Below are positions 418 to 54,387 of a DNA stretch of 55,052 nt, one piece after another (position 1 is the stretch's first letter; each line of letters begins with the position of its first letter). The stretch is from a virus. Taxonomy: Duplodnaviria; Caudoviricetes. The notes under the pieces were generated by a model. That model was not told the DNA's origin. It ran no database searches and worked only from the letters and a program-made list of their open reading frames with translations. Both the position numbers and the translations under genes were made by a program. The stretch spans positions 1 through 55,052 of the IMG/VR virus record IMGVR_UViG_3300045993_000305. One strand, written 5' to 3'.

Positions 418-561
418 GTGAGCTCTTGGCTGGTCGCGCTGACTGGTCTGATCTATCTGGGGGTGTCCGTCGAGCAGTATTTGGTTGGACACCCCCACTT
501 GGGTCTGGTATATTTCGGGTACGCACTATCGAACGTCGGGCTCTACTACACGGTGAAATGA
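418..561 (+). CDS. Small membrane protein, 47 aa (not in the ORF track)
   Basis: GTG start, MSSWLVALTGLIYLGVSVEQYLVGHPHLGLVYFGYALSNVGLYYTVK with two hydrophobic segments; fills the gap exactly between flanking genes. Confidence 0.75.
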   Translation: MSSWLVALTGLIYLGVSVEQYLVGHPHLGLVYFGYALSNVGLYYTVK

Positions 562-3291: not shown

Positions 3292-3380
3292 GGGAGAGCT
3301 GGATCGGATGGGTCTTGGCGTTCGCCGCCGGCTGCTCCGCTCTGGTGACGTACGCTCTCACGGTCGACGGGCTTCTTTGA
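3264..3380 (+). CDS. Possible small membrane peptide
   Basis: MVPVLQRTVRESWIGWVLAFAAGCSALVTYALTVDGLL; overlaps both neighbours. Confidence 0.3.
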   Translation: MVPVLQRTVRESWIGWVLAFAAGCSALVTYALTVDGLL

Positions 3381-6300
3381 CCAGCTCGTTGAGGTCGCGC
3401 ATCGCGTCAGTGATCTCGGCCTCGATCGCCTTCACCTCTGACGGCGGAGCACCGTCCTTCACCAGCTGGCGGCGCTCCTTCCTCAGCTTAGACACCTCCC
3501 GCTCCGCCTGCGCCCCCTCCTTCACCAGCTCGGCAACCGGGTTGTCCTGATAGTATCCCTCGACGTCTCCGTCGTTCGCCTCGCGCCCCTTGAGCTCGCG
3601 CTCGTGCTTGTTGATCTCGATCACGTTTCGGTAGAAGGCGGCTCCCTCTTTCGTCTGACCATCAGCGTTGCCGTAGAATCTCCCGACCAACGGGATCTTG
3701 TGCGCCGGCAGCTCCTCTCCGGTTCCGGCTGCACTGATCGTCGCGCCCACCTTCGCTACCTCTCTCGCCACGCCGCCGCCGATCTGGCCGGCAACGTAGT
3801 CGATCGCGTCTGGCGTTGGGCTCAGGCGTCCCGGGGTGAACTCGGTGCCGCCGCTCATTACGTTGATCGCCTCTGACATCCAGCGCGCCCACGGTGATGC
3901 TTTTTCGCTGGCCCGCTCGTGCCCCGGACTGGGATTCAGCGGGTTCATGTCTGGCCGCGCAATCTGCTTCCCGGTCCAGTCCTTGTTCTCCAGCAGCGCG
4001 ACCGCGGGATCGAACAGGGTGGGCGCGACGACCTGCGCCGGCGACGATCCTCCGCCTACCGGGCTGAACGTGTCGAACATCAGGCCGAGCAGGTTGAGCG
4101 TCTTGCTGGTCGCGTCCTTGCCTCCGGTCAGCGCGAGCTCGGCGCCGACGCGCCCGACGTTGGGCAGGAAGTTGAGGCCCAGCGGCATGGGGATCGTGAC
4201 GTATTTCTTGCCACCGATGGGGATGATGAACGAACGCTCTCGGACGAACTCCGGCGGCTCGTCGTCGTCGAACCCGGCCGCGGCCAGAGCAAACGCTTGA
4301 AGGACGCCAGCCAGCACGCCCCCGGCTACGATGACCGCGCCCTTCGGACCCCGGATCGTTTCGTACAAGCGGGCCGTGCCCTGCGCCGACGCATTGAAGA
4401 ACGCATAGAGCGATCCGATCTGGCTCGACACGTTGCCCTTGCGGTTGAAGTTGACGGTGAGGTTCTTCGCGATGCTCGCGGCTTTGTTGACCGAGACTCC
4501 GTTGTCGCGCGCCACCTTGTAGGCGGACAGGCGGGTGGCGTTTTCCATCGCCGTGTTGTAGTCACTCAGCCACCCCCCTGCCCACTTGATGAACTCTCGC
4601 GGGACCGCGCGCACCTTGCCCCTGCCGGCGTGCTTGATCTCCCTCTCGATCGCTTTGGTGCGATCCTCCGGGGTGACGAACATATCGCGGTACCCGGTGG
4701 CGCCGCCGGCGTTCTGGAACTCCTCGTACGTTTGCGCCCACCCAGATCGAGCGGGGCGCCCCTTGCGGTCTGAGCGCAGATCTCGAAGCGTACCCACCAG
4801 CGCCGGAAGTATTCCGCGCAGCACGGCCAGCTGCTTGCCGGCGATGGCCGTAGTCGTCAGGTTGAAGAACAGCTGCTGGGTGTCGCGAACGATGTTCACC
4901 ACGCCAAAGATCGGGTTGTACTGGGTGTTGATGGCGGCGAAGTAGCGCGTCACTTTCGCCGCGGCGCCGATGACGACGCCGAGCTCCGGCGCCGTGAGGT
5001 TCTTCATCGACGACGCCATGCGTACGGCCCGGGCGTTGTGCTTGTTGAAGACGACCGCGTGCTCCACGACTCCGCCCTTGCCGTCCGGCATGCGGGCCAC
5101 GACGACGTTGTCGCGCGACTTCCACATGGGGTCGATCGTCGAGATGACGATCCCGCTCGGGCCGACGTACTTGATCATCTCCGGGTTGTCAACCGACCAA
5201 AAGCTGGGGTTGTGGTTTGAGAGTGCGAGGTTGACGAGCGCCGTAGCGACTCTGTTCTTCCCGCCGCGCGTGATCGTCTTCTCGCGTGCGATGGCGAGAT
5301 TTGCGACGATGTTCTCGACCGGCTTGGTGGATCCTGTTGCGCGCTTCGATGCCGACCCCTTGACGGTGTACCCCTGCCCTGTCCCGCTCAGCGAGTCAGA
5401 GTCGACGTCCTCGCGATGCAGCGGGACGTAGTTTTTGTAGGCTCCGTTCCATGCGTCGATCGTCTTCTGGGATTCCAGCCCCTCGCTGACGAGCATCTGG
5501 TTGGTTCGCGCGATGATGGCGTCGACTCGGCGCGCGAGCGCGACGTATGCGGCGCGCTTGGCGGACGGCAGGCCGGCGAGGTAGGCGCGGGCGTCAGCGG
5601 TCTTGATTCCAGATCCTGCGTCTGGCATCTGCGGGTTGATCTTCGCGATCTGGATGTTGCGCTCTTCGGCGTGCCGGTTGTGCAGGTACGTCTCCAAGTC
5701 GTCGAGCGAAACCTTTCGCAGCGCCAAGTCTTGGATCAGCGGCTTCAGCTCGCGTTGCATGAAGTCGTCGGACAGCTTCCCGGCGCGGCCGTGATACAGC
5801 TCTTCTTGCAGGTAGGCGTTCTGCGCTTCGGGCAGAGCCACGCCGCGCGACGATTCGATGGCAGCGATGATCTTCTTGGTGTCGAGGTGCTTGTCTTGCA
5901 GGTTGAAAACGACCGCCTCCCACTTCGGGCTCGTGATGTCCGGGGCCACCCATGTGTTCCACGCGCCGTTGGGAGACGGAACCCGGTGCTTGCTGAAGTT
6001 CGGCTCGCGCGGGCTGAACTCTCCGTTGTTGCCGGTGGCCGACTTCACTTGCCGAGGATCGAAGATGATGTACGAATCCGCGGCAGCAGGGTAGCGCCGC
6101 TTGAACGCCTTGTCGGTGTACTCGTTCACGGCCGAGAACCCGTCGTCTTCTCTGAGGTCGACGCCCTCTCTGCGGTTGAGGTATACGATGCCGTCGTACC
6201 CGGCGCCCTTGATGGCGGCCTTGATTCCATCTTGGTTGTGGGCGTTCACCAGCTCGTCCCATCGAGAGTCTTCGACGATGCCCAGATCGATGAGCTGGCT

Positions 6301-6873
6301 CACCACAGTTTCGTTGTCGAAGTTGCCTTCGTCGTTCAGGCGCAGAGGATTTTCCAGCTTGACGTACACCGGCATCACTCTGCTGCGTTGTACTCCAGAC
6401 TGCGTCATTGCGCTCTGTATTCCCATCGCCAAGTTTTCAGCGTTGGACCCGGGGACGAATTGGGCCGCCTGCGCCTGCGTTCCAAAGTGCGAACCCATCT
6501 CCCCTTTGTAGGTGTTGAACACGTCGAAGTCATCGTACGCTCGGGTGCCGTGATACAGGACCAGCGGCACGCCGCCCGGCGCACCGTTCATCGTCGTCAC
6601 GCTGTCACCGAACCACGTCTGGAACGCTTGCGTCTCTTCCTGCGCCTTGTTCTTCGACACCCTCGGCGTCGGCTTGGGCTGCGCTTTCCCGACTTGATCC
6701 ATCACGTCTTCGCGCTTCTGGATCAGAGAATCGAGCCGATCCTTCACGGCGGTGACGGCGGCGTCCTGCGCCGGATAGCCGTCCGACCGCAACGACGCCG
6801 CGGCCTCGCGGATCTCCTTCTGATCCGCTTCGCCGATTCCGTTCCGCTTCATGCAGTGCGCCAGACTTCCCAT
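3358..6873 (-). CDS. Large polyvalent/ejection protein with ART-PolyVal ADP-ribosyltransferase domain and LPD38-like C-terminus
   Basis: FQTWFGDS...PLVLYHGT...VMPVYVKLENPL...GYDGIVY...YIIFDPRQVKSATGNNGEFS (ART-PolyVal pattern, about 5990-6635); NFNRKG, FFNASAQG, YVTIPMPLG, ENKDWTGKQI (LPD38-type). Confidence 0.85.
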   Translation of the reverse strand: MGSLAHCMKRNGIGEADQKEIREAAASLRSDGYPAQDAAVTAVKDRLDSLIQKREDVMDQVGKAQPKPTPRVSKNKAQEETQAFQTWFGDSVTTMNGAPGGVPLVLYHGTRAYDDFDVFNTYKGEMGSHFGTQAQAAQFVPGSNAENLAMGIQSAMTQSGVQRSRVMPVYVKLENPLRLNDEGNFDNETVVSQLIDLGIVEDSRWDELVNAHNQDGIKAAIKGAGYDGIVYLNRREGVDLREDDGFSAVNEYTDKAFKRRYPAAADSYIIFDPRQVKSATGNNGEFSPREPNFSKHRVPSPNGAWNTWVAPDITSPKWEAVVFNLQDKHLDTKKIIAAIESSRGVALPEAQNAYLQEELYHGRAGKLSDDFMQRELKPLIQDLALRKVSLDDLETYLHNRHAEERNIQIAKINPQMPDAGSGIKTADARAYLAGLPSAKRAAYVALARRVDAIIARTNQMLVSEGLESQKTIDAWNGAYKNYVPLHREDVDSDSLSGTGQGYTVKGSASKRATGSTKPVENIVANLAIAREKTITRGGKNRVATALVNLALSNHNPSFWSVDNPEMIKYVGPSGIVISTIDPMWKSRDNVVVARMPDGKGGVVEHAVVFNKHNARAVRMASSMKNLTAPELGVVIGAAAKVTRYFAAINTQYNPIFGVVNIVRDTQQLFFNLTTTAIAGKQLAVLRGILPALVGTLRDLRSDRKGRPARSGWAQTYEEFQNAGGATGYRDMFVTPEDRTKAIEREIKHAGRGKVRAVPREFIKWAGGWLSDYNTAMENATRLSAYKVARDNGVSVNKAASIAKNLTVNFNRKGNVSSQIGSLYAFFNASAQGTARLYETIRGPKGAVIVAGGVLAGVLQAFALAAAGFDDDEPPEFVRERSFIIPIGGKKYVTIPMPLGLNFLPNVGRVGAELALTGGKDATSKTLNLLGLMFDTFSPVGGGSSPAQVVAPTLFDPAVALLENKDWTGKQIARPDMNPLNPSPGHERASEKASPWARWMSEAINVMSGGTEFTPGRLSPTPDAIDYVAGQIGGGVAREVAKVGATISAAGTGEELPAHKIPLVGRFYGNADGQTKEGAAFYRNVIEINKHERELKGREANDGDVEGYYQDNPVAELVKEGAQAEREVSKLRKERRQLVKDGAPPSEVKAIEAEITDAMRDLNELVKEARRP

Positions 6874-8067: not shown

Positions 8068-8973
8068 TCAGCCTCCGTATGCGTAGTCGGCGAAGACGTT
8101 GATCGGGCTCGTCGTGGTGGTCGCGCCGGTCTGGAACAGAAGGAACTTGAGGCACGCACCGTCATGAATTTTCGGCAGGCTGGGAAGCTGGTTGACGAAG
8201 TCGCGCTCGGCGAGAACGCCGGATGCTGGAATGGGCAGCTGCCACAGCGGGCGCACGAGGTGCAGCACCAGCTGGCCCGTGCCGGTGTATGCCACGCCGC
8301 CGGAGAACGTGAACGCTTCGATGTCGCGGATGCCATAGTCGCCGGCCACCAGAGGCAGGAACGGAGCGTAGCGCGTCGCCGCGTTGCCGCTGTGCGGGAT
8401 CGCGCCTGCGATGGCGCCGGCCGCCGCGGCCATGCCGACAGCGATCGTCATGTTCTTGCCAGTAGTCCCGGCCTGATTGGTGTACTGAAACGATGTCAGA
8501 TTCGGACCACCAGTCGCCGGCGCAACCTCGGCCGAGAAGTACGCGCGCAGCCCGCTGCCGTTGTTCTCGCGAGCTCCAGCTCCGAGGGCGGTCATCGTTA
8601 CCGTGCGCGCGACAGCCGACGTCACGTCAGTGCCGGTGATCGGGACGTACCCCAACTGGTCAACGCACATGAGGATCCACGGTGCCCCAGCGGCTGCGAA
8701 CACGGTGGCCGCGGCGTTCAGGAAGTGCTTGGTGGCAGTCGAGACGTTGCCCCCGTGCCAGACCGCACCTTCCGCCCAAGTGTCGTCGGTGGGGACGTAG
8801 GTAAGAGACGTGCCGGCGTACGTCTTCACCGGAACGCTGCCGGTACACATGCCCAAGTCGGTCCACGTCCCGGCTACGCCAGCGATCGGCGTGACCGCGT
8901 TGTAGTCGATGCGTCCGTACTTTCCGTTCACCGTGATCTGGTTGAGCAGATCGTCTTGCGAAGAAAATCCCAT
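8068..8973 (-). CDS. Putative virion appendage protein (paralog A)
   Basis: Starts MGFSSQDDL; shares D-x-L-x-Y-x-P, G-x-GL, YT(N/D), P(F/L)xPLVAG-x-x-GI and LVRPL motifs with the next gene. Confidence 0.75.
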   Translation of the reverse strand: MGFSSQDDLLNQITVNGKYGRIDYNAVTPIAGVAGTWTDLGMCTGSVPVKTYAGTSLTYVPTDDTWAEGAVWHGGNVSTATKHFLNAAATVFAAAGAPWILMCVDQLGYVPITGTDVTSAVARTVTMTALGAGARENNGSGLRAYFSAEVAPATGGPNLTSFQYTNQAGTTGKNMTIAVGMAAAAGAIAGAIPHSGNAATRYAPFLPLVAGDYGIRDIEAFTFSGGVAYTGTGQLVLHLVRPLWQLPIPASGVLAERDFVNQLPSLPKIHDGACLKFLLFQTGATTTTSPINVFADYAYGG

Positions 8974-9854: not shown

Positions 9855-10274
9855 TTACTCGGCGTTGACGGTGAGGTCGCCGATCGCGAACTGCGGCTGG
9901 ATGTTCTGGTTGATTGCCAGCGACGCAGACAGCACGCCGATGATGCCCTGAGAGATGGCGCCAGACGCCGTATCCACCACCACAAACGCGGTCGCAGTTT
10001 GCGTCGCTCCGCCGTCGGTGCGCTTGCCGAACTGGATCAGGCCGGCGTTGGTGAACGCGGATCCGCCGTCGGTCCACGCGCTGGCCTTCGTAATCGCCAC
10101 GCGAGCGTACCCGGTGTAGGTGCATTCGTTTGCGATTGGCGCTGCCTCGCTCACGGCTCCGGCCGCGTCTGTAACCAGCGCGAGGTATTGCGTCGCGCCA
10201 GCTCGATACGCCGGATCGGTACCCTGAAGGTGCATCTTGAGGGTCTGGTTCTCGGTTGCGTTGCTCATTGACAT
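9855..10274 (-). CDS. Small tail-fibre-associated structural protein
   Basis: YLAL...E-x-x-Y-x-GYARVA...TNAGLIQF...PQFAIGDL pattern typical of small phage fibre-base proteins. Confidence 0.75.
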   Translation of the reverse strand: MSMSNATENQTLKMHLQGTDPAYRAGATQYLALVTDAAGAVSEAAPIANECTYTGYARVAITKASAWTDGGSAFTNAGLIQFGKRTDGGATQTATAFVVVDTASGAISQGIIGVLSASLAINQNIQPQFAIGDLTVNAE

Positions 10275-10284
10275 TTGATGCTCC

Positions 10285-10596
10285 TTATAGGGTCTTGGTG
10301 AAACTCAGACGACTGATGCGGCCGTCCTCGTCGCGCTCGGTTACTTCAACGTCCCATGACCCACCGGAACGACCCAGCAAGTCGATGACTTGAGACAGCT
10401 TCTCTGCCGCTACTTCCTGCCCCGCGCTGACCACTGTCATCATGCGCTCCATGTGGATCGGGTCTGGTGCTTGCGGCACCGGAGGGGTGGGCGGAGAAGG
10501 TGGCGGCGGTGGCGCCTTGATTACGGGCGCCTGCTTTTGAATCGTGTACGTCCCGCCGCGCTTGGCGATGTCAGCTTGGCTCAGGCGGATAGGCAT
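10285..10596 (-). CDS. Hypothetical Pro-rich protein
   Basis: Overlaps the end of the giant gene; C-terminal VTERDEDGRISRLSF motif. Confidence 0.65.
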   Translation of the reverse strand: MPIRLSQADIAKRGGTYTIQKQAPVIKAPPPPPSPPTPPVPQAPDPIHMERMMTVVSAGQEVAAEKLSQVIDLLGRSGGSWDVEVTERDEDGRISRLSFTKTL

Positions 10597-13500
10597 AGCA
10601 GCAGCTTTCGGGTCTGTTCGATGTCGCCGTCGAGCGCCTTCAGCGCCTCATCCGCTGGCATGGTGACTTCCGCCGTCCTTCCAGTTTCTGACTCGGTCAC
10701 TTCCACTTTCACGGGAACCGTCAGATCGTTCATGGGGGCGCCTATCGCGACCGGCGTTTCGACGTTCGAGTATTCGCTGTTCAGGTCGGTGAGATTGGAC
10801 AGGAACCGCTGCACGCTGGCCTGACTGTCGCCGGCGACGTAGCCCTTGAAGTTGCCGCTGTCCCAGTATTGCGAGACGTACTTCCAGTGCTTCTTCAGCG
10901 CGACTTCGGTCTGCGGTTCGGTCAGCATCGAGCTGTGCATGCCAACGATCTGCTCTTCGCGAGCGGACTCCGCCTTGTCGGCGGCGGCCTGCCCCTTCTC
11001 CAGCACCTCGGCCTTCTTGGCCGCGAGCTGATCCGGCGTGTAGTAGCGCGCCTTGTAGCGGTCCTTCTTCTTCTCGCGCGCCTTCCACTCCTCGGTGTTG
11101 CCGATGACCTTTTCCTCGAACAGCGCGATGCCGTCCGGTTGCATCATCTCCTTCACGCGCGCGAACTGCGGGTCGCGCGTGTTCGAGATGAATTGGAACC
11201 CCATCGACTCGTGGATCACGTCGTACTTGATCTTTGGATCGAACGTTAGGATCTTCGTCCCATCGTCTTCGGTCCACGCTTCCTTGCCCGCGTCCTCCGC
11301 CGATCCGAACGCGGAGACGTCGTACGTCGCGCCCGGGACCGTGCTGATGTCCTTGAAGTGCTTGGCCATCGTCAGGTTGGGGTCGAGCGCAAGCGTCTCG
11401 ATCCTGCCCTCGGAGGTGGCAGATATCGCCTTGTTGAACGCGCCCTCGCTCGCCGCAATGTCGAGCAGCTGCGCGCCTTCCGGGTAGCTCCGCACGATCG
11501 CGTCTCCCACTGCCTGCTGCACCTCGCGGAACCCGGGGATGCTGGTGGCAATGTGGTCGTCGAAGTTGCCGCGGTGCTTCAGGTACTCGGCGGTGAACCC
11601 AGCGTTGGAGCTGATGTCCAGCGTCGGAACGTACGGCACCTTCGCGTCTGGAGCTCGCTCGCCGCGCGACGCCGCGCTGAAGAAAGCGGTGTGCTCTCGC
11701 CCGTCGCCGGCCAGAGATTCTGTGCTTGCCGACTTGTTGCCGTAGCCGGCGCGGATCTCCGCGAACAGCTCGGCCGGGTCATGCGTTTGCGTCTCGGTCA
11801 TGCGTAGGCTCGGCGCTTCGAGCGGCGTGTAAGCGAACACCTTGCCGCTGGTGTCCTCGTCCGCGTCTTCAGCGTTGTCGGGATCCTCGTACTCGGAGAT
11901 GCCGTAGTGCTTGCCGTCCACGTTGGCGATGTAGTGGTACTCGTCGTACAGCGTGTAGGAGTTGCGCTCGGTGATCTTCTTCAGCTTCTCCGATGGCTTT
12001 GGCAACAGTTTGCGCGCCTCGAACAAGTTGTGCGCCGGATACCCGCCCGGCAGGTTCCCGAACTCGATGTCGTCGCGCTTCGCTTCCGGTATGGCCGCGA
12101 TGCGATCGGCGTCCGCAGCGATCCCGGTGCTCTTGTTCGCGTTCTTCTGTGCCGGCATGAATCCAATAGAGATCGGCGTGCCGTCGGGCAGGATCGTGTA
12201 TCCGGGCAGCTTGGTTGCTTCCTCGCCCACCACGTCCTTGCTGTGGTCCGCGCGCTCCAACCGTCCATCAACGTACTCGAATCCCTGACTCGTCGTGATC
12301 GCCTCCTGATGGTACTTCTCTGCCAGCTTGAGAGAGATCGAGGTGGGCGCGTAGACGATGTAGCTGTTGCCTTGATAGACACCGCGCCACATACCTTGCA
12401 CTGCCTCGAACCCGAACCCAAGCGCCTTCAGATCCTTCAACAGCTCCTTGTTTGCGACGGTGTTGTACGAAGCAGCGCGGTCCTCGACGGTGGCCGTGAT
12501 GAACGCCCATCCATCTTTCTTGATCGCCTCTTCAGGCGACTCGCGGAAGTCGAGCGGGTTAGCGTTGATCGGATCGTCCGCCTCGTACTTCTCCTGATCC
12601 TTCATCACGCCCAGTTCGGCGGCGAAGGCTAATGCTTTTTCTGCTTTGGCGGCAGCGGCGCGGGCGCTTTCTTCTGCTCTCGATTTCCTGACTGCGTCGA
12701 GACGCCGCGCGGCCCGACTTTCAAAGACGGATTGAACGCCTGAAGTAAACGGAGCCTTTTGTCCTGCACTGCTTGGATGGGGGTTTCGTCCTTCATTTTC
12801 AGCACTTGTTCTGCGTGCTGCTGCAAGATTTTCAACCCCCGCGGCGAGCCCTCCATTGCGGAGGATATTGGCGTATTCGCCGACCGTGAAGAGGGATCCA
12901 AAATCTGGGGTTGCGGCAATGAGGGCATCAGTCAGCTCCTTGTTGTTGAGTATCGATTCGGCCGTGCGGTTCTTGCCGCCCATCTCGTAGAGGGTCTTCG
13001 CCCAAGACCAGATCGTCTCCTGCACCTCGGCTGGCGTCCACACTTCTCCGGTGCGCTTCGTCAGCATGGCGGCTGCCTGCCTGACGTGCGCGCTCATGGC
13101 GAGATATCCGGCGCCCTTCCCGGGGTTGGTGACGATGCCACCGTTCTTCGTCAGCGGCGTGGTGAGGCCGCCAAAGATTGCGGCGTCCACGCCGGCGAAC
13201 GCTGCCATCCAGCTGTCGTTCGTCACTTCGTTGACGTCGTCGATCAGGTTGCGGTAGAACGAGTTGATCTTCGGGCCAGAGATCAGCATGCCAGCCGGAT
13301 CGGGGTGGGTGAGCGCGCGGATGACGTTGTTGCGATCGGTGTCCCCGATCACGCCCGTTCCGCGGATGCCTTCCTTCATCAGCTTCTCGATGGCGGCGTG
13401 CGCCACCGGGCGCCCGGCCTTCTGCCACAGCACCCACGTCTGGAGCGCGCCCCTCAGATTGTCCTCGACGCTGGTCTGCGGGGACATCGCCGCGAGCAGC

Positions 13501-16500
13501 ACCGCGAACCGCGGCGCGTCGAGCCCGAACACATGGTGGAGAGCGTACGACGCGCTGCGATACCATCCCTTTTTCGCCTTGCCCGCCCATGCGATGGCCG
13601 CCATTTCCTTTGTCGACGGCATCGACAGGAAGATCGAGACGAAGTTTTTCGCCGACTCGATCTTGTTGAGGGTCTTCTTTTCGGTCGACAGAATGAAGTC
13701 GAGGACTCCCCGTCGATCTCCTTCGGCCAGCTCCCGGTTGCTGGGCTGGCGCGACTTGTTTAGTTTTTCGTCACCCGCACCGGGTTCGACGGATCGCGCA
13801 GCTCCAGCCTTTTGGCCAGCACCTTTGGATCCTTCAGCTGCGTTGCCATCTCTTGCGATCTGGAGCCCATCCGCAGCAATATCGCGGACTCGCTTGAGGC
13901 TGGCGTTGGGTTCTTTTCGGATTGCATTGTCTCTGTCCTCGAAGTATTTGGCTGCGATAGGCAGCTCTTTTTTCATGGTATTAGGAGCAGTATACCACAG
14001 TCCAGCGAGCTGGGCCATGACCTCTTCTTGCAGGAACCGCGTGTGGTTGTCCCTCTGGTTGGCGCCAACCTTCGCGTCCCAGACGCCGAGCGGGTACTCC
14101 AGATAGCGGACCAAGTTCGGGTCGCTGTCGGGGTTGAGGTAGAAGTCGACCGCCTCGGACATCATGTCGCCCATCGGCTCCCGGGTCTTGCCGTACGGAT
14201 CCCACGCTATCGCCATGCGCGGGGACTGCGAGGGCAGCGACGTCCAGCCCGTGCGCTCGGTCCAGTGGTTGCTGACGTGGTGGTCGACCTCGTGCGCGAT
14301 CGTGGTCAGCGCGTCGACCTTCTCCTGAGCGTTGCCTGCCATCAGCTTCAGCAACACCTTCTGGGTGATCCCCAGCTCCCGGCCGTCGCCGGCGCTGTAT
14401 TGCTGGGCGCGCTCGGTGGGGTCGGCAGCGGTGTAGACGTGGAACCCGGTGACGCCGTCGAGCAGCTGCGATGGCATCCCGGCGTTGAGCAATCCCTGAA
14501 GGATGCCGGCCAACGCGCGCTGCTCTTTCGGGGTGGGCGCACGCAGGTTGGTGACGTCCGGTCCCTGAGCCGCCGCAACGTCCGGGTCAAGCGGTGACGT
14601 GACGATCCGCTGGACGGAGGGGTGCGCGTCGGCGACGGCGATCTCTGCGTACGCCTGCGAAATATGTACACGTTTTTCGGACGCTACCGCCTCTTTCTGC
14701 TTGGACTCCGCGGGCTTGGTTTCCGCCGGGTTTTTTGGCGCGTTGGTGGACGCCTCGCGCTCGGCCTTCAGCGCCTCGAAGCGCGTGCCGAGGTACTTGA
14801 CCGGGACGTCCCGTCCGAGGGTGACGATCTGGTTGCCGTGCTTGTACCCGGAGTAGCCGGCGTCGTGGACCGCTTGCTCGAACGCGTTCAGGTCCATGCG
14901 CCCTTGCGAGTCGCGGGGCACCGCCTTCATCAGCGCCGCGGCCTCTTTGGTCGTTACGTCCAGCAGGCCCGGCAGCTTCGCCTCGTAGGCGTGCGTGCCC
15001 GTTACCACTCCCTCGGGCTCGGGCAGCTTGATGCCGTCGTGCTCGTAGAAGTAGACCCGCTGCTTGACGGTGTCGGGCGCCGTTTGGAGACGGCCGCGCT
15101 CCTCGCCGTTCCACATGGACGCGCCTGTTCCGTACCGCCCACCCAGCAGGCTGGTCAGGTTGGCGGTGTTCCCGTAGTGGATACCGCGCGCCTCGACGCT
15201 TCCGGGGTACGTTTGCTGGGCGGCGATCTGCTGCACGCCCTCGGCCGCGGACGCAGCCGGGACGGCGCCGGGAGTCGTCCCGGGCATCTCGATCTTCGGC
15301 AGCTCGCCTGCCACCGGCTGCCGCGCGGGGGCGGGCCCGATGGGACTGGGGATGGTGACGGGCGCCGCCTTCGCGTCCAGACTCGGCACCTCGATGTTCA
15401 GGCCCGTGACTTGTTCACGTTCCGTGGACGCGCCGGGAACTTGAACGGCGGGCTTTTGCAGGCTGGCGTAGTGACCCTTCAGCGTCTGCAACGTCTCGGC
15501 CGCGGTGCGGTGCAGGTTGCCGGCTGCGGCGGACCCGTACTTGGCGCCGTAGTCCGCGAGCATGGCGCGGGCTCCGCGGATCAGCTCCTCGGCCTTCGCG
15601 GCGAGCTGGGCGCGCTGCTCCTTCGGCGCCGTCTTGGCGGCCTTCTTCAGCGCATCGATCTCGAACAGGGTGTTGGCCAGATCCCCCGCACTATTATGGT
15701 GCGTGTCTTGGGGGACGCCGTCCGGGTACGTCGGGCTCGCGCCCACCTGCGTGATGGGTGCCGCGGCGATGGCGGCGATGGAAGCGGACGGGTCGGCTTC
15801 AGAGATGTCGATCTGCGACGCGGTCTGCGGTGCCGCTCCGGCTTGCGTAGCGGGCGCAGGAGGCGGCGCCCAGTTGGCGGAGGCTCTGGATGCCTCGGTG
15901 GCGGCGCGGGCCGCCTCAACCGCGTCTGCGTGCGCCTGAGCGGGGTCTACCGTTGGCACCTCGGTGACCGGCAGGGGTTGGGCGGATACCTCGGCGACGG
16001 TGCGTCCGGGCGCCGGTAGCGCAGGAACCACCGGAGGGGTGGGCGATCCGGTGTACGGCTGGATCGGTTGGGCCTGTCCGGGGGCGGCCGGCCTCATTCC
16101 TCCGAACATCTCGGATGCCTTCGATTCCGCGCTGGTCTGGGCGGCGTCTGCCTCTGATACCTCGCTGCGCCTCTGCAACGCGTCTCCGACAGCGGCGCGA
16201 CCCATGCCCGCAGCAGAGAACCCGGCGCCGGGCAACATCGCCCCGACGGTGGCGCTGAGCGCGTTCTCGGTCATGTCGCCCGGATCTCTCCCGGCGATGT
16301 ATTTTTGCGACAGGTCTTGTCCAACCTGCCCGATGCCTTCCGTTGCGCCCTCGCCTAGCCCGCCTCCCGCGACAACGCCGACTCCGGCAACCGCGCGAGC
16401 GATCAACGACGTGGCCAGCGTGCGCTTCATGCTGTCGGGGATGGACTCGACGATCGCCTTGAAGGCGGGCGCCGCTATCTTTGCGCCAACGAACGTGAGC

Positions 16501-17240
16501 CCCTCGCTGGCAGCCTCGATCAATCCGTTGAGCGTGGCGTCCGTTCCCGATGCATCGATGGACACCCCGGCCTTGCGGTTCTCAGCGTACTGGTTGCCGC
16601 CGGCGGTGATCCCCATCATGGGAAGCGTGGCCGGAGCGAGCTCGGGAACCAAGATCGTGGCCAGCATGGCGGCGTACGATGGCGTCTGGGACGCAGCCTG
16701 AGTCAGCAGCCACGGTGCGAATTGATCGCTCTTCCACGCCTGAGTGACGCCCATTTTCTGGAGCACCGGCGCGTTGGCTTCTGCCATATCCTCCAGCTGC
16801 TTGGCCGACTCGAATCGCTTGACGCTTCCAGCGTCGTCCTTCGGGAGCAGCATGGCGGCGATGTCTTGCGCGGTAGACATTGGATCGCCAGCAAGCGTGA
16901 TGCCAGTCTCTGCTGCCTTTGCCTTGCGCGCCTCAGACTGCTGAGCGAAACCCCATAGCGCGTCGAGCGCGCCGGCGCCCGCCCTCTGGAGCCCGCCTAT
17001 GCCGGCGTCCACCAAGCTGCTGGTCAGAGGCTCAGCAGACTTTCTGACATCTGCTCTGCGGCTGACGGCGTCCTCGGTGTCGGCGAGCGGCGGAGCGGTG
17101 ACCTGCGGGCGAGACGCCGCCCGGCTCGCGGCGTCCGGGTACTCTTCTTCCGGCTTGTCCGCAAGCAAGTAGTCGAACGGGTTCACCTCGGCCGGAGCCG
17201 AACTCTTGTCGCCTAACAGGTAGTCGAACGGGTTGCTCAT
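10581..17240 (-). CDS. Giant polyvalent ejection protein, 2219 aa (ART-like, HEXXH peptidase, glycosylase-like, DUF3293-like, CmoA-like domains)
   Basis: N-terminal NPFDYLL repeats and Gly/Ala hydrophobic region typical of DNA-ejection proteins; domain motifs are detailed in findings; follows other ejection genes. Confidence 0.85.
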   Translation of the reverse strand: MSNPFDYLLGDKSSAPAEVNPFDYLLADKPEEEYPDAASRAASRPQVTAPPLADTEDAVSRRADVRKSAEPLTSSLVDAGIGGLQRAGAGALDALWGFAQQSEARKAKAAETGITLAGDPMSTAQDIAAMLLPKDDAGSVKRFESAKQLEDMAEANAPVLQKMGVTQAWKSDQFAPWLLTQAASQTPSYAAMLATILVPELAPATLPMMGITAGGNQYAENRKAGVSIDASGTDATLNGLIEAASEGLTFVGAKIAAPAFKAIVESIPDSMKRTLATSLIARAVAGVGVVAGGGLGEGATEGIGQVGQDLSQKYIAGRDPGDMTENALSATVGAMLPGAGFSAAGMGRAAVGDALQRRSEVSEADAAQTSAESKASEMFGGMRPAAPGQAQPIQPYTGSPTPPVVPALPAPGRTVAEVSAQPLPVTEVPTVDPAQAHADAVEAARAATEASRASANWAPPPAPATQAGAAPQTASQIDISEADPSASIAAIAAAPITQVGASPTYPDGVPQDTHHNSAGDLANTLFEIDALKKAAKTAPKEQRAQLAAKAEELIRGARAMLADYGAKYGSAAAGNLHRTAAETLQTLKGHYASLQKPAVQVPGASTEREQVTGLNIEVPSLDAKAAPVTIPSPIGPAPARQPVAGELPKIEMPGTTPGAVPAASAAEGVQQIAAQQTYPGSVEARGIHYGNTANLTSLLGGRYGTGASMWNGEERGRLQTAPDTVKQRVYFYEHDGIKLPEPEGVVTGTHAYEAKLPGLLDVTTKEAAALMKAVPRDSQGRMDLNAFEQAVHDAGYSGYKHGNQIVTLGRDVPVKYLGTRFEALKAEREASTNAPKNPAETKPAESKQKEAVASEKRVHISQAYAEIAVADAHPSVQRIVTSPLDPDVAAAQGPDVTNLRAPTPKEQRALAGILQGLLNAGMPSQLLDGVTGFHVYTAADPTERAQQYSAGDGRELGITQKVLLKLMAGNAQEKVDALTTIAHEVDHHVSNHWTERTGWTSLPSQSPRMAIAWDPYGKTREPMGDMMSEAVDFYLNPDSDPNLVRYLEYPLGVWDAKVGANQRDNHTRFLQEEVMAQLAGLWYTAPNTMKKELPIAAKYFEDRDNAIRKEPNASLKRVRDIAADGLQIARDGNAAEGSKGAGQKAGAARSVEPGAGDEKLNKSRQPSNRELAEGDRRGVLDFILSTEKKTLNKIESAKNFVSIFLSMPSTKEMAAIAWAGKAKKGWYRSASYALHHVFGLDAPRFAVLLAAMSPQTSVEDNLRGALQTWVLWQKAGRPVAHAAIEKLMKEGIRGTGVIGDTDRNNVIRALTHPDPAGMLISGPKINSFYRNLIDDVNEVTNDSWMAAFAGVDAAIFGGLTTPLTKNGGIVTNPGKGAGYLAMSAHVRQAAAMLTKRTGEVWTPAEVQETIWSWAKTLYEMGGKNRTAESILNNKELTDALIAATPDFGSLFTVGEYANILRNGGLAAGVENLAAARRTSAENEGRNPHPSSAGQKAPFTSGVQSVFESRAARRLDAVRKSRAEESARAAAAKAEKALAFAAELGVMKDQEKYEADDPINANPLDFRESPEEAIKKDGWAFITATVEDRAASYNTVANKELLKDLKALGFGFEAVQGMWRGVYQGNSYIVYAPTSISLKLAEKYHQEAITTSQGFEYVDGRLERADHSKDVVGEEATKLPGYTILPDGTPISIGFMPAQKNANKSTGIAADADRIAAIPEAKRDDIEFGNLPGGYPAHNLFEARKLLPKPSEKLKKITERNSYTLYDEYHYIANVDGKHYGISEYEDPDNAEDADEDTSGKVFAYTPLEAPSLRMTETQTHDPAELFAEIRAGYGNKSASTESLAGDGREHTAFFSAASRGERAPDAKVPYVPTLDISSNAGFTAEYLKHRGNFDDHIATSIPGFREVQQAVGDAIVRSYPEGAQLLDIAASEGAFNKAISATSEGRIETLALDPNLTMAKHFKDISTVPGATYDVSAFGSAEDAGKEAWTEDDGTKILTFDPKIKYDVIHESMGFQFISNTRDPQFARVKEMMQPDGIALFEEKVIGNTEEWKAREKKKDRYKARYYTPDQLAAKKAEVLEKGQAAADKAESAREEQIVGMHSSMLTEPQTEVALKKHWKYVSQYWDSGNFKGYVAGDSQASVQRFLSNLTDLNSEYSNVETPVAIGAPMNDLTVPVKVEVTESETGRTAEVTMPADEALKALDGDIEQTRKLLLCLSA
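12629..12928 (-). CDS. Nested +1-frame ORF (99 aa) inside the giant gene
   Basis: AAGGAG-7 nt-ATG; host-frame codons become A/T-ending over this interval. Confidence 0.55.
   Translation of the reverse strand: MPSLPQPQILDPSSRSANTPISSAMEGSPRGLKILQQHAEQVLKMKDETPIQAVQDKRLRLLQAFNPSLKVGPRGVSTQSGNREQKKAPAPLPPKQKKH
13760..13927 (-). CDS. Nested +1-frame ORF (55 aa) inside the giant gene
   Basis: GAGG-9 nt-ATG; MQSEKNPTPASSESAILLRMGSRSQEMATQLKDPKVLAKRLELRDPSNPVRVTKN; extended -10 about 60 nt upstream; same codon shift. Confidence 0.6.
   Translation of the reverse strand: MQSEKNPTPASSESAILLRMGSRSQEMATQLKDPKVLAKRLELRDPSNPVRVTKN
13989..13997 (-). promoter_or_regulatory. Internal extended -10 promoter within the giant gene
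   Basis: TG-G-TATACT encoded by TGG TAT ACT (W-Y-T) using A/T-ending codons atypical for this gene. Confidence 0.55.
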
Positions 17241-18196
17241 GGGCGCAGATCTTTCCCGGTTTTTGCTTTGTACGCCGCCTTGACATCAGCCGCTTTTTCA
17301 GGGTGCTGCTTGATGAACTGGTACGCCGCCTTCGCGAGCGCCACCGGGTCGTCTGCCGAGGCGGGAGCGGCCCCAGTGTTTACGACGCCCGATGCGCGCG
17401 GCTTATTGCCTGAGTCTTCGTTGCGCTTGGCGTCCACCTCTTCAAACGTCACTTTGGTCTTCTTGTCCGGGGCGTAATACTCGGTGACGCCTTCGCTGGC
17501 GGGCACCGGGTCACGCTTGCCCATGCCAAGAAAACCTGAACTGCCCGGATCTCCAGCCTTGCCACTGATGACCCGCTTGTAGTAGCCGGTTGTCTTGTCC
17601 TGCGACCATTCACGCGACCCCTTCTCGGCCTCCCATGCGAACGGCTTCTCAGCTTTCACTTTGTCTGGCTTCGCGCCTGAACCCGCCTCCGTTTTGTCGG
17701 CCTTCGCTTGCGCTTGGTTGCCGCGGGCGCGGGCTTCGTCGGCGCGAGCGTTGAAGTAGTCGGCCTCTTCCGCGGTGAGCTCGCGAGGAGCGCCGTCGAT
17801 GACGACCTTGTCTCCCTTGACCAACCGGACGCCGGGCGAGAGAGTGTGGAACTTCTCGGCCTCTTGCGCCGCGGTGAGCTTGCCAGCGGCCTCGGCCATT
17901 GCCGGAGCCTTCGCCTTGATCGCCGCGACCTCGCGCGTATTGGCATCAGTAGATGCAGCGTTGAGGGCGTCGTTGGTGGCGGCGGCCTTCAGTGGGATCT
18001 GGGCCAGATCGATGTCGGCAGACGCTTGAGCGTTCGCCTTGTGGTTCTCGCGCGCCAGCTGCGCCAGCGTGGCGTCGCGCTTCGCTTGGATCGCTGACTT
18101 CTGTTGTTCGTCGATGTCCTTCGCCACCGACCCCATCGCGCCGGCCGCTCCCCCAGCGAGCGCGCTCGCGATGACCCCACCCCATGACATGCTCAT
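17237..18196 (-). CDS. Putative DNA ejection (internal virion) protein
   Basis: Gly/Ala-rich hydrophobic N-terminus followed by coiled coil; ATGA overlap. Confidence 0.7.
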   Translation of the reverse strand: MSMSWGGVIASALAGGAAGAMGSVAKDIDEQQKSAIQAKRDATLAQLARENHKANAQASADIDLAQIPLKAAATNDALNAASTDANTREVAAIKAKAPAMAEAAGKLTAAQEAEKFHTLSPGVRLVKGDKVVIDGAPRELTAEEADYFNARADEARARGNQAQAKADKTEAGSGAKPDKVKAEKPFAWEAEKGSREWSQDKTTGYYKRVISGKAGDPGSSGFLGMGKRDPVPASEGVTEYYAPDKKTKVTFEEVDAKRNEDSGNKPRASGVVNTGAAPASADDPVALAKAAYQFIKQHPEKAADVKAAYKAKTGKDLRP

Positions 18197-18873
18197 TGTT
18201 GCGCTCCGGCTGCTTGGTTGACGATGCCCCCCATTTGCGGCGGACGCGCTTGAGGCGGCCCTGCCTGCGGCGGACCCGGCTGGGTGGGCGGCTGACCCGA
18301 TGGCCCAGCGGGAGGAGGTTGCTCAGCTTGACCGCGACCGGGAATCTTGCTGATGTCCTGCTCGATGCCGGCCTGCGTCAGCGATTGCTTCGCCTCGATG
18401 GCGCGGGCGTCGGTGATCTGGCCGTCGCGCCCCATGTTCTGGCCCCAGATACGCAGCCCCTCATACAGCGCGGCTTCGGCCACGTCCTGCGACTGCTCCT
18501 CGCTGACGATGCCGGCCGCGGTGGCGATGTCCACGATCTGGGACACCACCTCCTGCCCGGCGTTGTACAGGATCTCCTCTGGGATCTCCTGATCGCTCTG
18601 GGCGACGGTCTGCACGAGCGAAGTCATTACCATCGCCGCGGTGTGGCCGATCTCCTTCGAGATGTTGTTCGCCCCGGCCTTCAGCTTTTCCAGCATGGGG
18701 ACGATGCGATCGTCGGAGTAGAGCATCTCCATCGCTTTGTAGACGATGGTGTCGTATTGCTGTTGCTCTTCCGGTGTGACGTTGGGCTCCTCGCCATCGA
18801 ACGCGGCGCGCTCGTCTGGGCTGGACTCAATCTGCTTGGCCTGAGCTGCGACGTTTTTGTTTTCCGGTTTCAT
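18193..18873 (-). CDS. Hypothetical acidic helical protein of the ejection cluster
   Basis: ATGA overlaps on both sides; Pro/Gln-rich tail. Confidence 0.75.
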   Translation of the reverse strand: MKPENKNVAAQAKQIESSPDERAAFDGEEPNVTPEEQQQYDTIVYKAMEMLYSDDRIVPMLEKLKAGANNISKEIGHTAAMVMTSLVQTVAQSDQEIPEEILYNAGQEVVSQIVDIATAAGIVSEEQSQDVAEAALYEGLRIWGQNMGRDGQITDARAIEAKQSLTQAGIEQDISKIPGRGQAEQPPPAGPSGQPPTQPGPPQAGPPQARPPQMGGIVNQAAGAQQ

Positions 18874-23968: not shown

Positions 23969-25513
23969 TCAGTCCCACGGGTTGGATGATACCCAGAACG
24001 ATGACCCGTCCCAGTAGAAGTTGACGAACGTCACCGCGTTCGCTGCCGAGGCGATGGTTGGGAGCGCGTTGCCGAGGCAATACGCAGCCGCAAACCCGAC
24101 CCACGTCGGAGCCCGGCTCCCGGTACCGTCCTGCACAATTCGCAGCTGGTACTTCCCGATCGGCAGGCTCGTGCTGTTGATCGTCAGGGCGGGAGTGGCC
24201 GCGTTCAGCGTGATGCTTTGGAACGGGCCATTGAGGAAGTCGATCGTCTTCGCGGCGCCGGAGTTTCCGTTGGCGTATTCTGCCGGCGACCCGATCGGAC
24301 CAGAGAACAGGGTGCGAAGCGAGGTGACGGTCAGCGTCCCCTTGCCGGCGGACCCGTTGGTGCCACCGGCAGACGCGATCTTGGCGTCATACAGTTGGGC
24401 GCCGGCCGCTGACCTGAAGTCAAGGCGCGCGGTGGTTGCAGTGGCGTCGCCGATGGTGACGATCGGGAGCGTGTACCCGGCCCCGAAATACGTCTGCTCT
24501 GTCACCCCGGCCAGCAGCGACACAGTGTTGAAGTCGTTGAACAGGGTCGGGTATGCGCCCTGTTCCAGCTTCATGTTCCTGATAATTATACCATACGCGG
24601 TGGCGCTGACCCCTGAGAACTCGACGGAAAACGCCATCCAGACCGTAGACGCCGGAGCGGTGGCCGTGACAGAGTAGACCGCGTTGGCGGTAGCCGGGAG
24701 CGCAGCTCCTGACGTCGCCAATCCAATCAACGAGCTCGCTCCGTCATAGAAGCGCAAGGTGGGAACGCCGGCGCCGGCAGACATGCCAGTCGTGTCGATC
24801 TGGACGGACCCGGTTACCTGCTGCCCGACTCCGCACGCTATCCACCCCCCGGTCACAGGCTTGTGATCGAAAGATCCGGCGATGCCTCCGGTGTTGATCC
24901 AGTGCGGGCCACGATGGTCCCAGTTGCGCGACAGGCTCGTGGTCCACCAACCGCTCCCGGTGTTGCCAGAGGGATCCTTCAGCACGTTGTGCCCGCCCAC
25001 CTGCCACCGGCATTGCCCCCCGGTGTACGCGAGGTAAGAGCCGGCGTTGACTGTCGCCGTGTCTGGGATGTCGCGCGTCGGCGTGCCCCAGAACACGATG
25101 GATCCATCCGTCAACAGCGGCCCAACCTTGTGGTCGATGGCCGGCAGGCCAGTCAAGCCAGCGGAGTACGAGGACAGCTGAGACAGGTTGACCGGCTCGT
25201 CCGCCGCGAGAGCGTTGGGCAGGTTGCGGATGCGGTACGGAGACACGCTGATGTCGGCTTGCAGGGAAGACGACAGCACGAGATCTCCCGACGAATTGAA
25301 CTGCATCAGTTTTCCGGCTCGCTGTACGGGAGTCTCGACGATGCGGTGATCGGTCAGGCTCTCGTCGGCAGGGAGCTTGATCGCGGTGTTCAGCTCGGCT
25401 TGCACGGTGGAGAACCCGACCTCGGCTCCTTGCATCTCGGCGTTCACCTCAGACGCTTTGGCGACCGACCCAGAGATCAGCTGGTTGACGAAGTTGTAGA
25501 AGCGGTTGCTCAT
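23969..25513 (-). CDS. Tail fibre protein
   Basis: AKASEVNAE anchor, RIRNLPNA-x-x-x-DEPVNLSQL knob, carbohydrate-binding-like domain (MKLEQGAYPT), C-terminal IVQDGTGSRAPTW domain. Confidence 0.8.
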   Translation of the reverse strand: MSNRFYNFVNQLISGSVAKASEVNAEMQGAEVGFSTVQAELNTAIKLPADESLTDHRIVETPVQRAGKLMQFNSSGDLVLSSSLQADISVSPYRIRNLPNALAADEPVNLSQLSSYSAGLTGLPAIDHKVGPLLTDGSIVFWGTPTRDIPDTATVNAGSYLAYTGGQCRWQVGGHNVLKDPSGNTGSGWWTTSLSRNWDHRGPHWINTGGIAGSFDHKPVTGGWIACGVGQQVTGSVQIDTTGMSAGAGVPTLRFYDGASSLIGLATSGAALPATANAVYSVTATAPASTVWMAFSVEFSGVSATAYGIIIRNMKLEQGAYPTLFNDFNTVSLLAGVTEQTYFGAGYTLPIVTIGDATATTARLDFRSAAGAQLYDAKIASAGGTNGSAGKGTLTVTSLRTLFSGPIGSPAEYANGNSGAAKTIDFLNGPFQSITLNAATPALTINSTSLPIGKYQLRIVQDGTGSRAPTWVGFAAAYCLGNALPTIASAANAVTFVNFYWDGSSFWVSSNPWD

Positions 25514-46716: not shown

Positions 46717-46782
46717 TTGACCTACATCAAAGTCTCCTGTATCTTCTTGACGTACACTTTGAGTGTAGTACCAATTATACCA
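46717..46782. promoter_or_regulatory. Overlapping divergent promoters with palindromic operator
   Basis: Plus strand: TTGACC-17-TATCTT (46717-46745) and a second TTGACG (46747); palindrome TACACT-TTG-AGTGTA (46753-46767); minus strand: TG-G-TATAAT (46782-46774). Confidence 0.72.
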
Positions 46783-54011: not shown

Positions 54012-54346
54012 TGCGTAATCTCGTCGATGAAATTGATCGGGATGCCCAGCTTCGCAGCAATGAGCACCTCCTCGTCCACGCCGCGGCTCTTGTCCCACCC
54101 GTCGAGGCGCAGCACCAACAGCTCGGCAGCGTGCGCGAGGAACGGCATGCACTGCCGCATCCAGAAGTGGTGCGGACGTGCGCTGATGTAATCGGAGAGA
54201 TGATGCGAGTGGGTGATCGGTGAGTAGACCACGAGGTCGCTATCGCGCATCAGCTGCGCGGCGCACTTGGTGACCGCTCGATAGCGTCGGTCCCTCACCA
54301 TGTAGTCAGGATGCGAATACGGACACGCCAAGTATGTGTACTTCAC
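54008..54346 (-). CDS. DUF1937-like nucleoside deoxyribosyltransferase-fold protein
   Basis: YLACPYSHPD, YSPITHSH, LDGWDKSRGVDEE. Confidence 0.85.
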   Translation of the reverse strand: MKYTYLACPYSHPDYMVRDRRYRAVTKCAAQLMRDSDLVVYSPITHSHHLSDYISARPHHFWMRQCMPFLAHAAELLVLRLDGWDKSRGVDEEVLIAAKLGIPINFIDEITQ

Positions 54347-54378: not shown

Positions 54379-54387
54379 AGTATAACA
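54379..54387 (-). promoter_or_regulatory. Extended -10 promoter for the enzyme cassette
   Basis: TG-T-TATACT in the 49-nt gap between the endolysin and DUF1937 genes. Confidence 0.6.

Follow-up and report, generated by a model that had tools for sequence, protein, structure and literature searches.

The subject of this analysis is a pair of short open reading frames (ORFs) embedded in a giant gene of the Caudoviricetes virus record IMGVR_UViG_3300045993_000305 of IMG/VR. The window analyzed is the whole record, 55,052 bases in length, with an estimated completeness of about 90%. The giant gene lies on the minus strand and encodes a multi-module protein of 2219 amino acids (aa); both ORFs lie inside it on the same strand, in the +1 frame relative to the gene's own frame, which we call the main frame. 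The original prediction had described this gene as dominated by codons ending in G or C except in two patches where A- or T-ending codons become common, each patch holding one +1 ORF behind its own Shine–Dalgarno (SD) sequence. The two patches are present, and the coordinates, lengths, and SD spacings given for the two ORFs are all correct. The features concerned are listed here, with GC3 standing for the GC content of third codon positions and pLDDT for the predicted local distance difference test score.

10581-17240, minus strand: giant multi-module gene, 2219 aa, in a late structural block, with the portal, major head, and tail-fibre genes on that strand too
13730-14030, minus strand: patch 1, the low-GC3 end of a module with an HEXXH motif (sliding GC3 0.40-0.57)
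13927-13760, minus strand, +1 frame: ORF1, 55 aa, GAGG-9-ATG, a candidate embedded gene
12843-13694, minus strand, main frame: core of the DUF7178 module, from a 48-sequence alignment; all-alpha (AlphaFold2 pLDDT 90.3)
12620-12950, minus strand: patch 2, the low-GC3 C-terminal tail of the DUF7178 module and the region of probable dual coding
12928-12629, minus strand, +1 frame: ORF2, 99 aa, AAGGAG-7-ATG, member of a conserved family of putative embedded small proteins
12854-12856, minus strand: internal +1 ATG (Met25 of ORF2), near the usual start of the family, with no SD before it in the window
12734-12763 (hand-counted), minus strand: +1 motif DKRLRLLQAF, family consensus A-K-Q-x-R-L-[LI]-Q-x-L

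Over the whole giant gene, the GC content of codon positions 1, 2, and 3 is 0.64, 0.48, and 0.81. Main-frame GC3 is 0.84 outside both patches, as against 0.46 over the span of ORF1 (26/57 codons; binomial P = 3e-11), 0.48 over positions 14000-13760 (39/81; P = 1e-13), and 0.45 over the span of ORF2 (45/101; P = 1.5e-19). Given that the lowest GC3 of equal-length windows elsewhere in the gene is 0.68-0.71, both patches lie far beyond chance. In a log-likelihood scan of codon usage trained on the other long genes of the phage, the +1 frame outscores the main frame in 22 of the 438 windows of the giant gene, no other frame does so, and these 22 windows form two runs (of 10 and 12) that coincide with the two patches. 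The same scan flags 73 of 2416 windows genome-wide, mostly at 5' ends with crude, over-extended ORF starts, and contains no other comparable internal run. No DNA repeat connects the two patches, a search for known RNA families over 12300-14300 returned a single match at chance level, and contigs from sequencing runs compared with 12300-14400 gave only identical sequence (two samples) and short unrelated pieces, with no variants.

Selection on the +1 frame of the DUF7178 tail

Comparative evidence is available for patch 2. A query of 633 aa around the two patches against IMG/VR recovered four loci that share only aa ~1183-1536 with the giant protein, that is, the DUF7178 module, at 39-47% identity. 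An alignment-based scan of IMG/VR matched 263 stretches, of which 232 encode relatives; the locus analyses use the best 80, and the non-redundant set consists of 48 sequences with less than 85% aa identity, drawn from 83 of 85 (L045 lacks the anchor described below and L062 is too short). The module, which in the window spans 12582-13700, also occurs on six contigs of metagenome-assembled genomes (MAGs) labelled Gammaproteobacteria, Betaproteobacteria, and Chloroflexi, and was matched neither in 50,697 GenBank phage records (blastn, tblastn) nor in 72,556 plasmids. In roughly half of the relatives the main ORF stops 123-170 aa past a conserved EVQETxW anchor; the module is there a separate gene of ~560-620 aa, and the equivalent of patch 2 is its C-terminal tail. 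In the remaining relatives the module is fused into ORFs of more than 1300 to 3600 aa.

The loss of G/C-ending codons recurs in these tails. GC3 drops from core to tail by at least 0.20 in 27 of the 32 non-redundant relatives with a GC content of at least 0.58; in this GC-rich group the means are 0.85 for core GC3, 0.55 for tail GC3, and 0.78 for main position 1 of the tail, which is the wobble position of the +1 frame. Three of the five exceptions have smaller drops (L010, L048, L061), and the two with no drop (L069, L084) also lack the +1 motif. Tail GC3 in AT-rich relatives (GC 0.37-0.48) is ~0.25-0.33, close to that of their core, which suggests that the third positions of the tail stay near the same value whatever the GC content of the genome.

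Read in the +1 frame, the tails of the relatives share a consensus, M-x-x-N-S...L-L..L...K-[ND]-P-x-L-A-A-K-Q-x-R-L-[LI]-Q-x-L, that is written with codons ending in G or C in that frame; its counterpart in the window is ...IQAVQDKRLRLLQAF. Across the motif columns of the 48 sequences conservation is highest at main position 3 (up to 1.7 bits), which is conserved as A or T (for example, T in 46 sequences). It is poor at main position 2 and in the main-frame amino acid and lowest of all at main position 1. We compared 24 independent pairs of relatives with 70-96% nucleotide (nt) identity in the core, counting differences per site at main positions 1/2/3 and the fraction of codons with a changed amino acid in the main/+1/+2 frames:

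Core: differences 0.087/0.052/0.324; changed amino acids 0.095/0.34/0.35
Start-to-motif stretch: differences 0.187/0.115/0.201
Motif region: differences 0.244/0.094/0.109; changed amino acids 0.30/0.19/0.34
Downstream main-frame motif AARRLE: differences 0.161/0.097/0.342; changed amino acids 0.144/0.369/0.405

Across the motif, main position 1 thus replaces main position 3 as the fastest-changing site, with main position 3 constrained there at 0.109 as against 0.324 in the core, and this shift argues for purifying selection on the +1 frame. It is the strongest evidence for such selection, as it appears in independent pairs. Of 11 pairs scanned over whole giant ORFs, 7 point to this stretch again, at +43 to +119 codons from the anchor. 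No stop interrupts the +1 frame between codons +62 and +100 in 45 of the 48 relatives, where 27.3 would be expected from core codon usage (none of 200,000 simulations reached 45; the relatives share phylogeny, so that simulation P values, like that of the Fisher test on start codons below, are optimistic). In AT-rich relatives the corresponding 60-70 codons likewise contain no +1 stop, while the +2 frame is full of stops.

A profile built from the +1 peptides of 37 relatives, with the window excluded, matches segment 12931-12632 of the window among 13,277 six-frame segments (E = 1.3e-5, 25 bits). It gives one match per locus, and 79 of 91 loci, training members included, match at E <= 1e-3. 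Thirteen loci from metagenomes and MAG contigs of GTDB took no part in training; 10 of them match at E <= 4.8e-5, all 10 in the +1 frame, and of the other three one is cut off before the tail, one has a weak variant only, and one has nothing.

Start signals and predicted product of ORF2

An ATG lies upstream of the motif, within the open stretch, in all 38 sequences that match the motif pattern. The commonest +1 start is formed by a main-frame TAT-G in a conserved AGYG and has GGAGG-like sequences 6-8 nt upstream. Among 24 GC-rich relatives, 16 spell the Tyr of this AGYG as TAT and so create the +1 ATG, compared with background counts of 181 for TAT and 955 for TAC (Fisher P = 6e-8). Other lineages start farther upstream, at an ATG either ~13 codons before this one or, behind AAGGA(G), ~27 codons before it; the latter type is that of the window (AAGGAG-7-ATG at 12928) and of L038, L048, L055, and L061. 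A +1 ATG with an SD-like sequence is in this way preferentially kept among the relatives.

The predicted product is a small protein of ~60-100 aa with two helices. For a 72-aa form, AlphaFold2 with a 38-row alignment places helices at residues 5-22 and 27-41 ahead of a disordered tail (mean pLDDT 69). No signal peptide, lipobox, or membrane segment was found in the ORF2 product. The family gave only single, chance-level matches in Pfam, none of its 38 members is in PHROGs, the longer database forms match no Pfam family, and a query of the ESM Atlas with a family member returned no usable match. A profile search of 1.84 billion representative proteins retrieved 198 at E <= 1e-3, 30 of them at E <= 1e-10. 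Of 24 database proteins examined, 18 start at the Met of the family; they are mostly 60-70 aa long, some with longer C-terminal extensions. The nine clusters examined are unnamed or called "hypothetical protein", come mostly from short contigs, and are gene-caller outputs, not translation evidence. The family has stayed unnamed because gene finders discard ORFs inside longer genes. We also observed that in five relatives (L005, L006, L020, L034, L060) the +1 frame stays open and conserved past the DUF7178 tail (ETE.DG.RAEALRRL.VR), a stretch in which the next module bears the overlapping main-frame motif SLAPLEGAP; three database proteins of 140-190 aa (P0024, P0030, P0031) bear this extension.

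Taken together, the phase shift, the profile matches, and the kept starts support the proposal that the DUF7178 tail is overprinted with a genuine and conserved coding frame, ORF2. Very probably it is a real embedded gene, translated and selected in the +1 frame, of a new and widespread small-protein family, and the kept start signals make it probable that its translation starts independently. The original prediction had further held that ORF2 travels with its domain. This stands insofar as ORF2 is present both in the fused giant genes and in the stand-alone genes of ~560-620 aa, but the embedding makes the linkage automatic.

The explanation that we favor, on balance, is that the linker-like tail of the DUF7178 module hosts a second, small gene in the +1 frame that is started independently on the same late mRNA. 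The giant gene would be a "polyvalent" virion-protein gene of several modules, one of which, DUF7178, ends in a poorly conserved, linker-like tail, and the small gene would be written on that tail. Ribosomes would start it independently on the late mRNA from its own SD and ATG, which in the window would be the AAGGAG-7-ATG at 12928 and in most relatives GGAGG, 6-8 nt, and the ATG made from main-frame TAT-G. Its product of ~60-100 aa would consist of two short helices carrying K-[ND]-P-x-L-A-A-K-Q-x-R-L-[LI]-Q-x-L, followed by a disordered tail rich in Ser and Pro. The A/T-ending main-frame codons would be the visible cost of the small gene: GC3 would fall in the tail because main position 3 is position 2 of the small gene and is fixed by the amino acids of the small gene. 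As it is written into the module, the small gene would be inherited with it, whether stand-alone or fused. Its protein may most plausibly act with or on the DUF7178 domain, for example, in assembly or in the producing cell. Co-folds of the DUF7178 core with the +1 peptide scored 0.46, 0.00, and 0.00 without controls and are uninformative either way.

Alternative readings and the first patch

In addition to the shared phylogeny already mentioned, several points weigh against this explanation. In the window alone the openness of the +1 frames is unremarkable, because such frames often stay open when synonymous codons are shuffled or resampled (20-73% of trials; P 0.2-0.7); the giant gene has ten +1 stop-to-stop runs of at least 70 codons. 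Shuffling only the tail's own codons gives 42.3 open frames expected among the relatives compared with the 45 found, a weak result (P = 0.036). The window has no SD before the usual ATG of the family, so that the upstream start would be needed, and L-[EK]-E-A-G, conserved in the main frame, in part dictates the SD-like sequence. About 4 of the 48 relatives (L053, L069, L071, L084) lack the +1 motif, which indicates that the motif is dispensable for DUF7178. In two database proteins, P0034 and P0071, the +1 peptide shares a single frame with a main-frame motif (TPDF or TPAF), as would fit frameshifting. Selection on the +1 frame and the keeping of its start signals are what the comparisons record; from these we infer translation, independent initiation, and any function of the small protein.

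The last two database proteins bring in the alternative that survives best, namely that the +1 tail is reached by programmed ribosomal frameshifting. DUF7178 would then have an alternative C-terminus and there would be no free small protein; in the fused giant genes the protein would be cut short at the module boundary. This idea accounts just as well for selection on the +1 frame, rare main-frame codons follow one another along the tail in GC-rich phages, and such codons can favor +1 slippage; the single-frame reading of P0034 and P0071 and the lack of an SD before the usual ATG in the window also speak for it. We nevertheless consider frameshifting unlikely, given that the +1 ATG is preferentially kept (TAT in 16/24 vs. 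a background of 16%), that each of the 38 motif-bearing sequences has an upstream ATG, usually behind a GGAGG-like sequence, and that in many relatives the +1 frame is closed by a stop just 4-6 codons ahead of that ATG. No conserved slippery site was noticed, although no dedicated search was run, and P0034 and P0071 seem to be out of frame in their upstream parts, as indel errors in their contigs would give, natural frame fusions being the other possibility.

A second alternative takes both patches as special linkers whose +1 ORFs are by-products without a product; the patches would be clusters of rare codons that slow translation between domains, or A/T-richer junction DNA left by shuffling or fusion. 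Both patches do lie at module ends, and in about half of the relatives the main gene stops just past the equivalent of patch 2, which marks this place as a present or former gene end. Chance would suffice to keep the +1 frames of the window open, and the support for patch 1 comes from this one genome. The giant genes of relatives also have many other GC3 dips away from the DUF7178 tail (for example, codons 906-1010 and 1905-2021 of L001 and codons 1585-1682 of L007), with a pattern of GC at the three positions like that of the validated tail. In patch 2, however, the substitution phase is shifted to the +1 frame and A/T third positions are conserved at specific sites, and AT-rich relatives, in which such codons are not rare, keep the open frame and the motif. 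An ordinary linker of the giant gene, rich in Ala and Pro (aa ~380-520), retains a GC3 of 0.70-0.90, and in patch 1 ten windows in a row score best in the +1 frame, with no comparable internal run elsewhere among 2416 apart from over-extended 5' ends. Linkers without products are thus a very improbable account of the two patches.

These codon scores give ORF1 the same within-genome signature as ORF2, and its +1-frame GC3 is 0.75. As the original prediction stated, ORF1 ends at an NKS junction, its stop TAA overlapping the main-frame codons L-N of ...EKLNKS. It was also said to follow an HEXXH peptidase domain: the motif, HEVDH, is indeed found upstream of patch 1, but the peptidase label has no family match and no meaningful PDB sequence match behind it. 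The host module of ORF1 (aa 850-1185) has one homologue in 5.8 billion proteins, P0004, a protein of 2100 aa from the Joint Genome Institute (JGI) encoded on a 17,790-bp contig, which is 58% identical to the giant protein overall and 35% over this module; no shorter homologues of the HEXXH module were found. Scans of metagenomes, IMG/VR, and GTDB did not recover the DNA that encodes P0004. Aligned with P0004, the first half of the ORF1 span shows conservative changes. The second half is poorly conserved, with a 7-residue gap and low main-frame identity, which counts against ORF1 as a gene. No homologue of the ORF1 peptide was found by word search and none of significance by phmmer or blastp against the 13,277 six-frame segments. 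ORF1 in patch 1 may be a second, unrelated gene of the kind of ORF2, but we consider this less likely than not.

A paralogous origin of ORF1 within the ORF2 family was considered, given its K-D-P...L-A-K-R-L look and the AGQKA of both main frames, and rejected, as the score of 3.5 bits is at about the 90th percentile of 2000 shuffles. A point in favor of ORF1 is that some relatives (L016:1316-1585; L029 and L030:872-1117; L047:686-931) carry at least one more embedded +1 ORF, unrelated to the others, in a low-complexity linker of their giant genes. Its peptide contains Cys and Trp (...KACYAEK...SKWDCDKWIKEGG...) and is confined to one close clade; the pair L016/L030 shows differences of 0.25/0.12/0.09 at main positions 1/2/3.

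The remaining features of the window that bear on the surroundings of ORF1 and of the giant gene are as follows.

13989-13997, minus strand: TGGTATACT, an exact extended -10-like motif 62 nt before the ATG of ORF1; putative promoter
3358-6873, minus strand: DarB-like giant protein, 1171 aa, part of the late structural block
28751-31090, minus strand: tail-fibre-like protein, annotated in the late structural block
32491-33480, minus strand: major head protein, annotated in the late structural block
34675-36942, minus strand: portal or adaptor, annotated in the late structural block

An extended -10 motif about 60 nt before ORF1, in a promoter style said to be used elsewhere in this phage, had been taken as an internal promoter. 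A copy does occur at 13997-13989, and the window is enriched in such motifs: sites with up to one mismatch to TGGTATACT number 7, compared with 1.33 expected, and none of 100 shuffles reached 7. The other six lie at 506-514 (plus), 8478-8486 (plus), 24585-24593 (minus), 46774-46782 (minus), 54223-54231 (minus), and 54379-54387 (minus). Three of the seven are in intergenic spots plausible for promoters, and one (TGGTATAAT) is inside a 514-aa gene (23969-25513) on its sense strand. A consensus promoter scan for a -35/-10 pair found no sites in 10000-18500. The motif in front of ORF1 encodes W-Y-T in the giant protein, and W-Y-T is also present in P0004, where the in-frame Met that follows it is not kept. 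We regard a promoter at this motif match as rather unlikely. As a side observation, a main-frame ATG at 13974-13976 (Met1089, MKKELP...; the Met absent from P0004) lies 13 nt past the -10-like hexamer, and a transcript from that -10 would be nearly leaderless for a C-terminal isoform of ~1130 aa.

The full form of the original prediction, in which this promoter gives an operon of ORF1 and ORF2 a transcript of its own, apart from the late mRNA, and both products are antidotes or chaperones of the adjoining enzymatic domains, can draw on the exact motif, the GAGG-9-ATG start of ORF1, the reality of ORF2, and a GC3 that is already low ~100 nt upstream of ORF1, where no +1 ORF is present, yet it is very improbable, given the empty consensus scan, the W-Y-T shared with P0004, a distance of ~830 nt from ORF1 to ORF2 with no +1 coding between them, an ORF2 family that occurs in dozens of contexts without ORF1, the HEXXH module, or such a promoter, the lack of kinship of ORF1 with that family (3.5 bits), and the putative nature of toxicity or enzymatic activity in both domains. 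The operon is accordingly not upheld, and the role of the small proteins as antidotes, chaperones, or regulators, which was proposed together with it, is putative. The second domain had been called glycosylase-like; the DUF7178 core has no match in the PDB at E <= 0.001, and its resemblance in fold to 8-oxoguanine DNA glycosylases is non-significant (probability 0.77, template modelling (TM) score 0.38-0.49, E 0.78), which is all that backs this label.

A wider generalization would be that inter-domain linkers of giant polyvalent genes regularly host embedded +1 genes and that each module is a two-gene cassette with its cognate partner. ORF2 would be the founding example of such cassettes, ORF1 and the family in L016, L029, L030, and L047 further ones, and the other GC3 dips of the giant genes might add more. 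We are cautious about this generalization and think it improbable as it stands; if it were true, a small partner (antidote, chaperone, or regulator) would be inseparable from its domain when modules are shuffled, split, or fused.

The giant protein and comparison with known systems

In Pfam and PHROGs, only two parts of the 2219-aa protein are matched: aa 1215-1349, by DUF7178 and by a PHROG of unknown function, and aa 1892-2136, a methyltransferase-like region; the protein also carries a DUF3293-like stretch and, in HEVDH, the HEXXH motif. Beyond this motif, the HEXXH module has no family in Pfam, PHROGs, or NCBIfam and no meaningful sequence match in the PDB. The modules at aa ~660-830, ~1183-1536, ~1560-1707, and 1892-2136 recur in relatives, singly and reordered. 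The giant gene thus has several unrelated effector-type domains that are shuffled among relatives, as is characteristic of polyvalent proteins. Its product is putatively packaged in the virion and delivered into the host, as suggested by the place of the gene in the late structural block. This block also encodes an amidase-like protein of 763 aa and several proteins without a family, and its 1171-aa protein (3358-6873) matches very long PHROG families (phrog_14770 at 2.6e-199), one of them DarB-like and antirestriction.

Two further observations concern the giant protein itself. Relative to P0004 it has an extra module of ~130 aa (window 11736-12134, aa ~1703-1835) with [AG]-N-K-S on both flanks, to both of which the single GNRTKV of P0004 aligns; these flanks fit the notion of the NKS junction as a module boundary. 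Its N-terminus (17154-17234) is a tandem repeat of NPFDYLL.DK, encoded by two 30-nt copies that are 83% alike and 51 nt apart.

If our reading of ORF2 is right, hundreds of uncultivated phages carry a conserved and so far unnamed small-protein family, and a local collapse of GC3 in a GC-rich phage gene can reliably point to dual coding. It would also show in a concrete case how a mobile protein module can carry a second gene from which it is physically inseparable. Should the small protein act on DUF7178, it would give entry to the function of that domain and to the handling of giant injected proteins in the producing cell.

Polyvalent proteins of phages and conjugative elements combine many shuffled domains in one polypeptide (Iyer et al. 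2017, PMC5512222). The giant protein likewise joins an HEXXH region, DUF7178, and DUF3293-like and methyltransferase-like parts in an order that varies among relatives, and a DarB-like giant protein is encoded next door. On a term search, the article contains none of the terms frameshift, overlapping, linker, alternative reading, and internal promoter, and to that extent a second gene inside a module tail is apparently not part of the concept described. The name "DUF7178" occurs in none of ~8.4 million full texts, and among the papers listed by literature searches for overlapping, embedded, or alternative-frame genes in connection with polyvalent, ejection, or internal virion proteins, none deals with this case.

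The tail assembly chaperones G and GT of phage lambda arise by a -1 shift at a slippery site that extends the protein. ORF2 and its host gene resemble them in that two products would come from overlapping frames within a late structural operon, an arrangement that is kept across distant phages. Unlike the extension in GT, the ORF2 frame has an ATG and an SD-like sequence of its own that are preferentially kept, and no slippery site was noticed at ORF2, for which no dedicated search was made.

Closer parallels are Rz1 inside Rz of lambda and genes B, K, and E of phiX174, which are phage genes embedded on the same strand in another frame. As in these systems, a small gene with its own start signal would lie wholly inside a larger one and be translated from the same late mRNA, with both frames selected. 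The ORF2 product, by contrast, lacks a signal peptide, a lipobox, and a membrane segment, and thus would be neither a spanin nor a lysis protein. In further contrast to Rz and the phiX174 genes, the host gene of ORF2 is a module of a giant multi-domain protein, putatively of the virion, and the overlap is placed in an inter-domain linker that moves with its module between fused and split forms.

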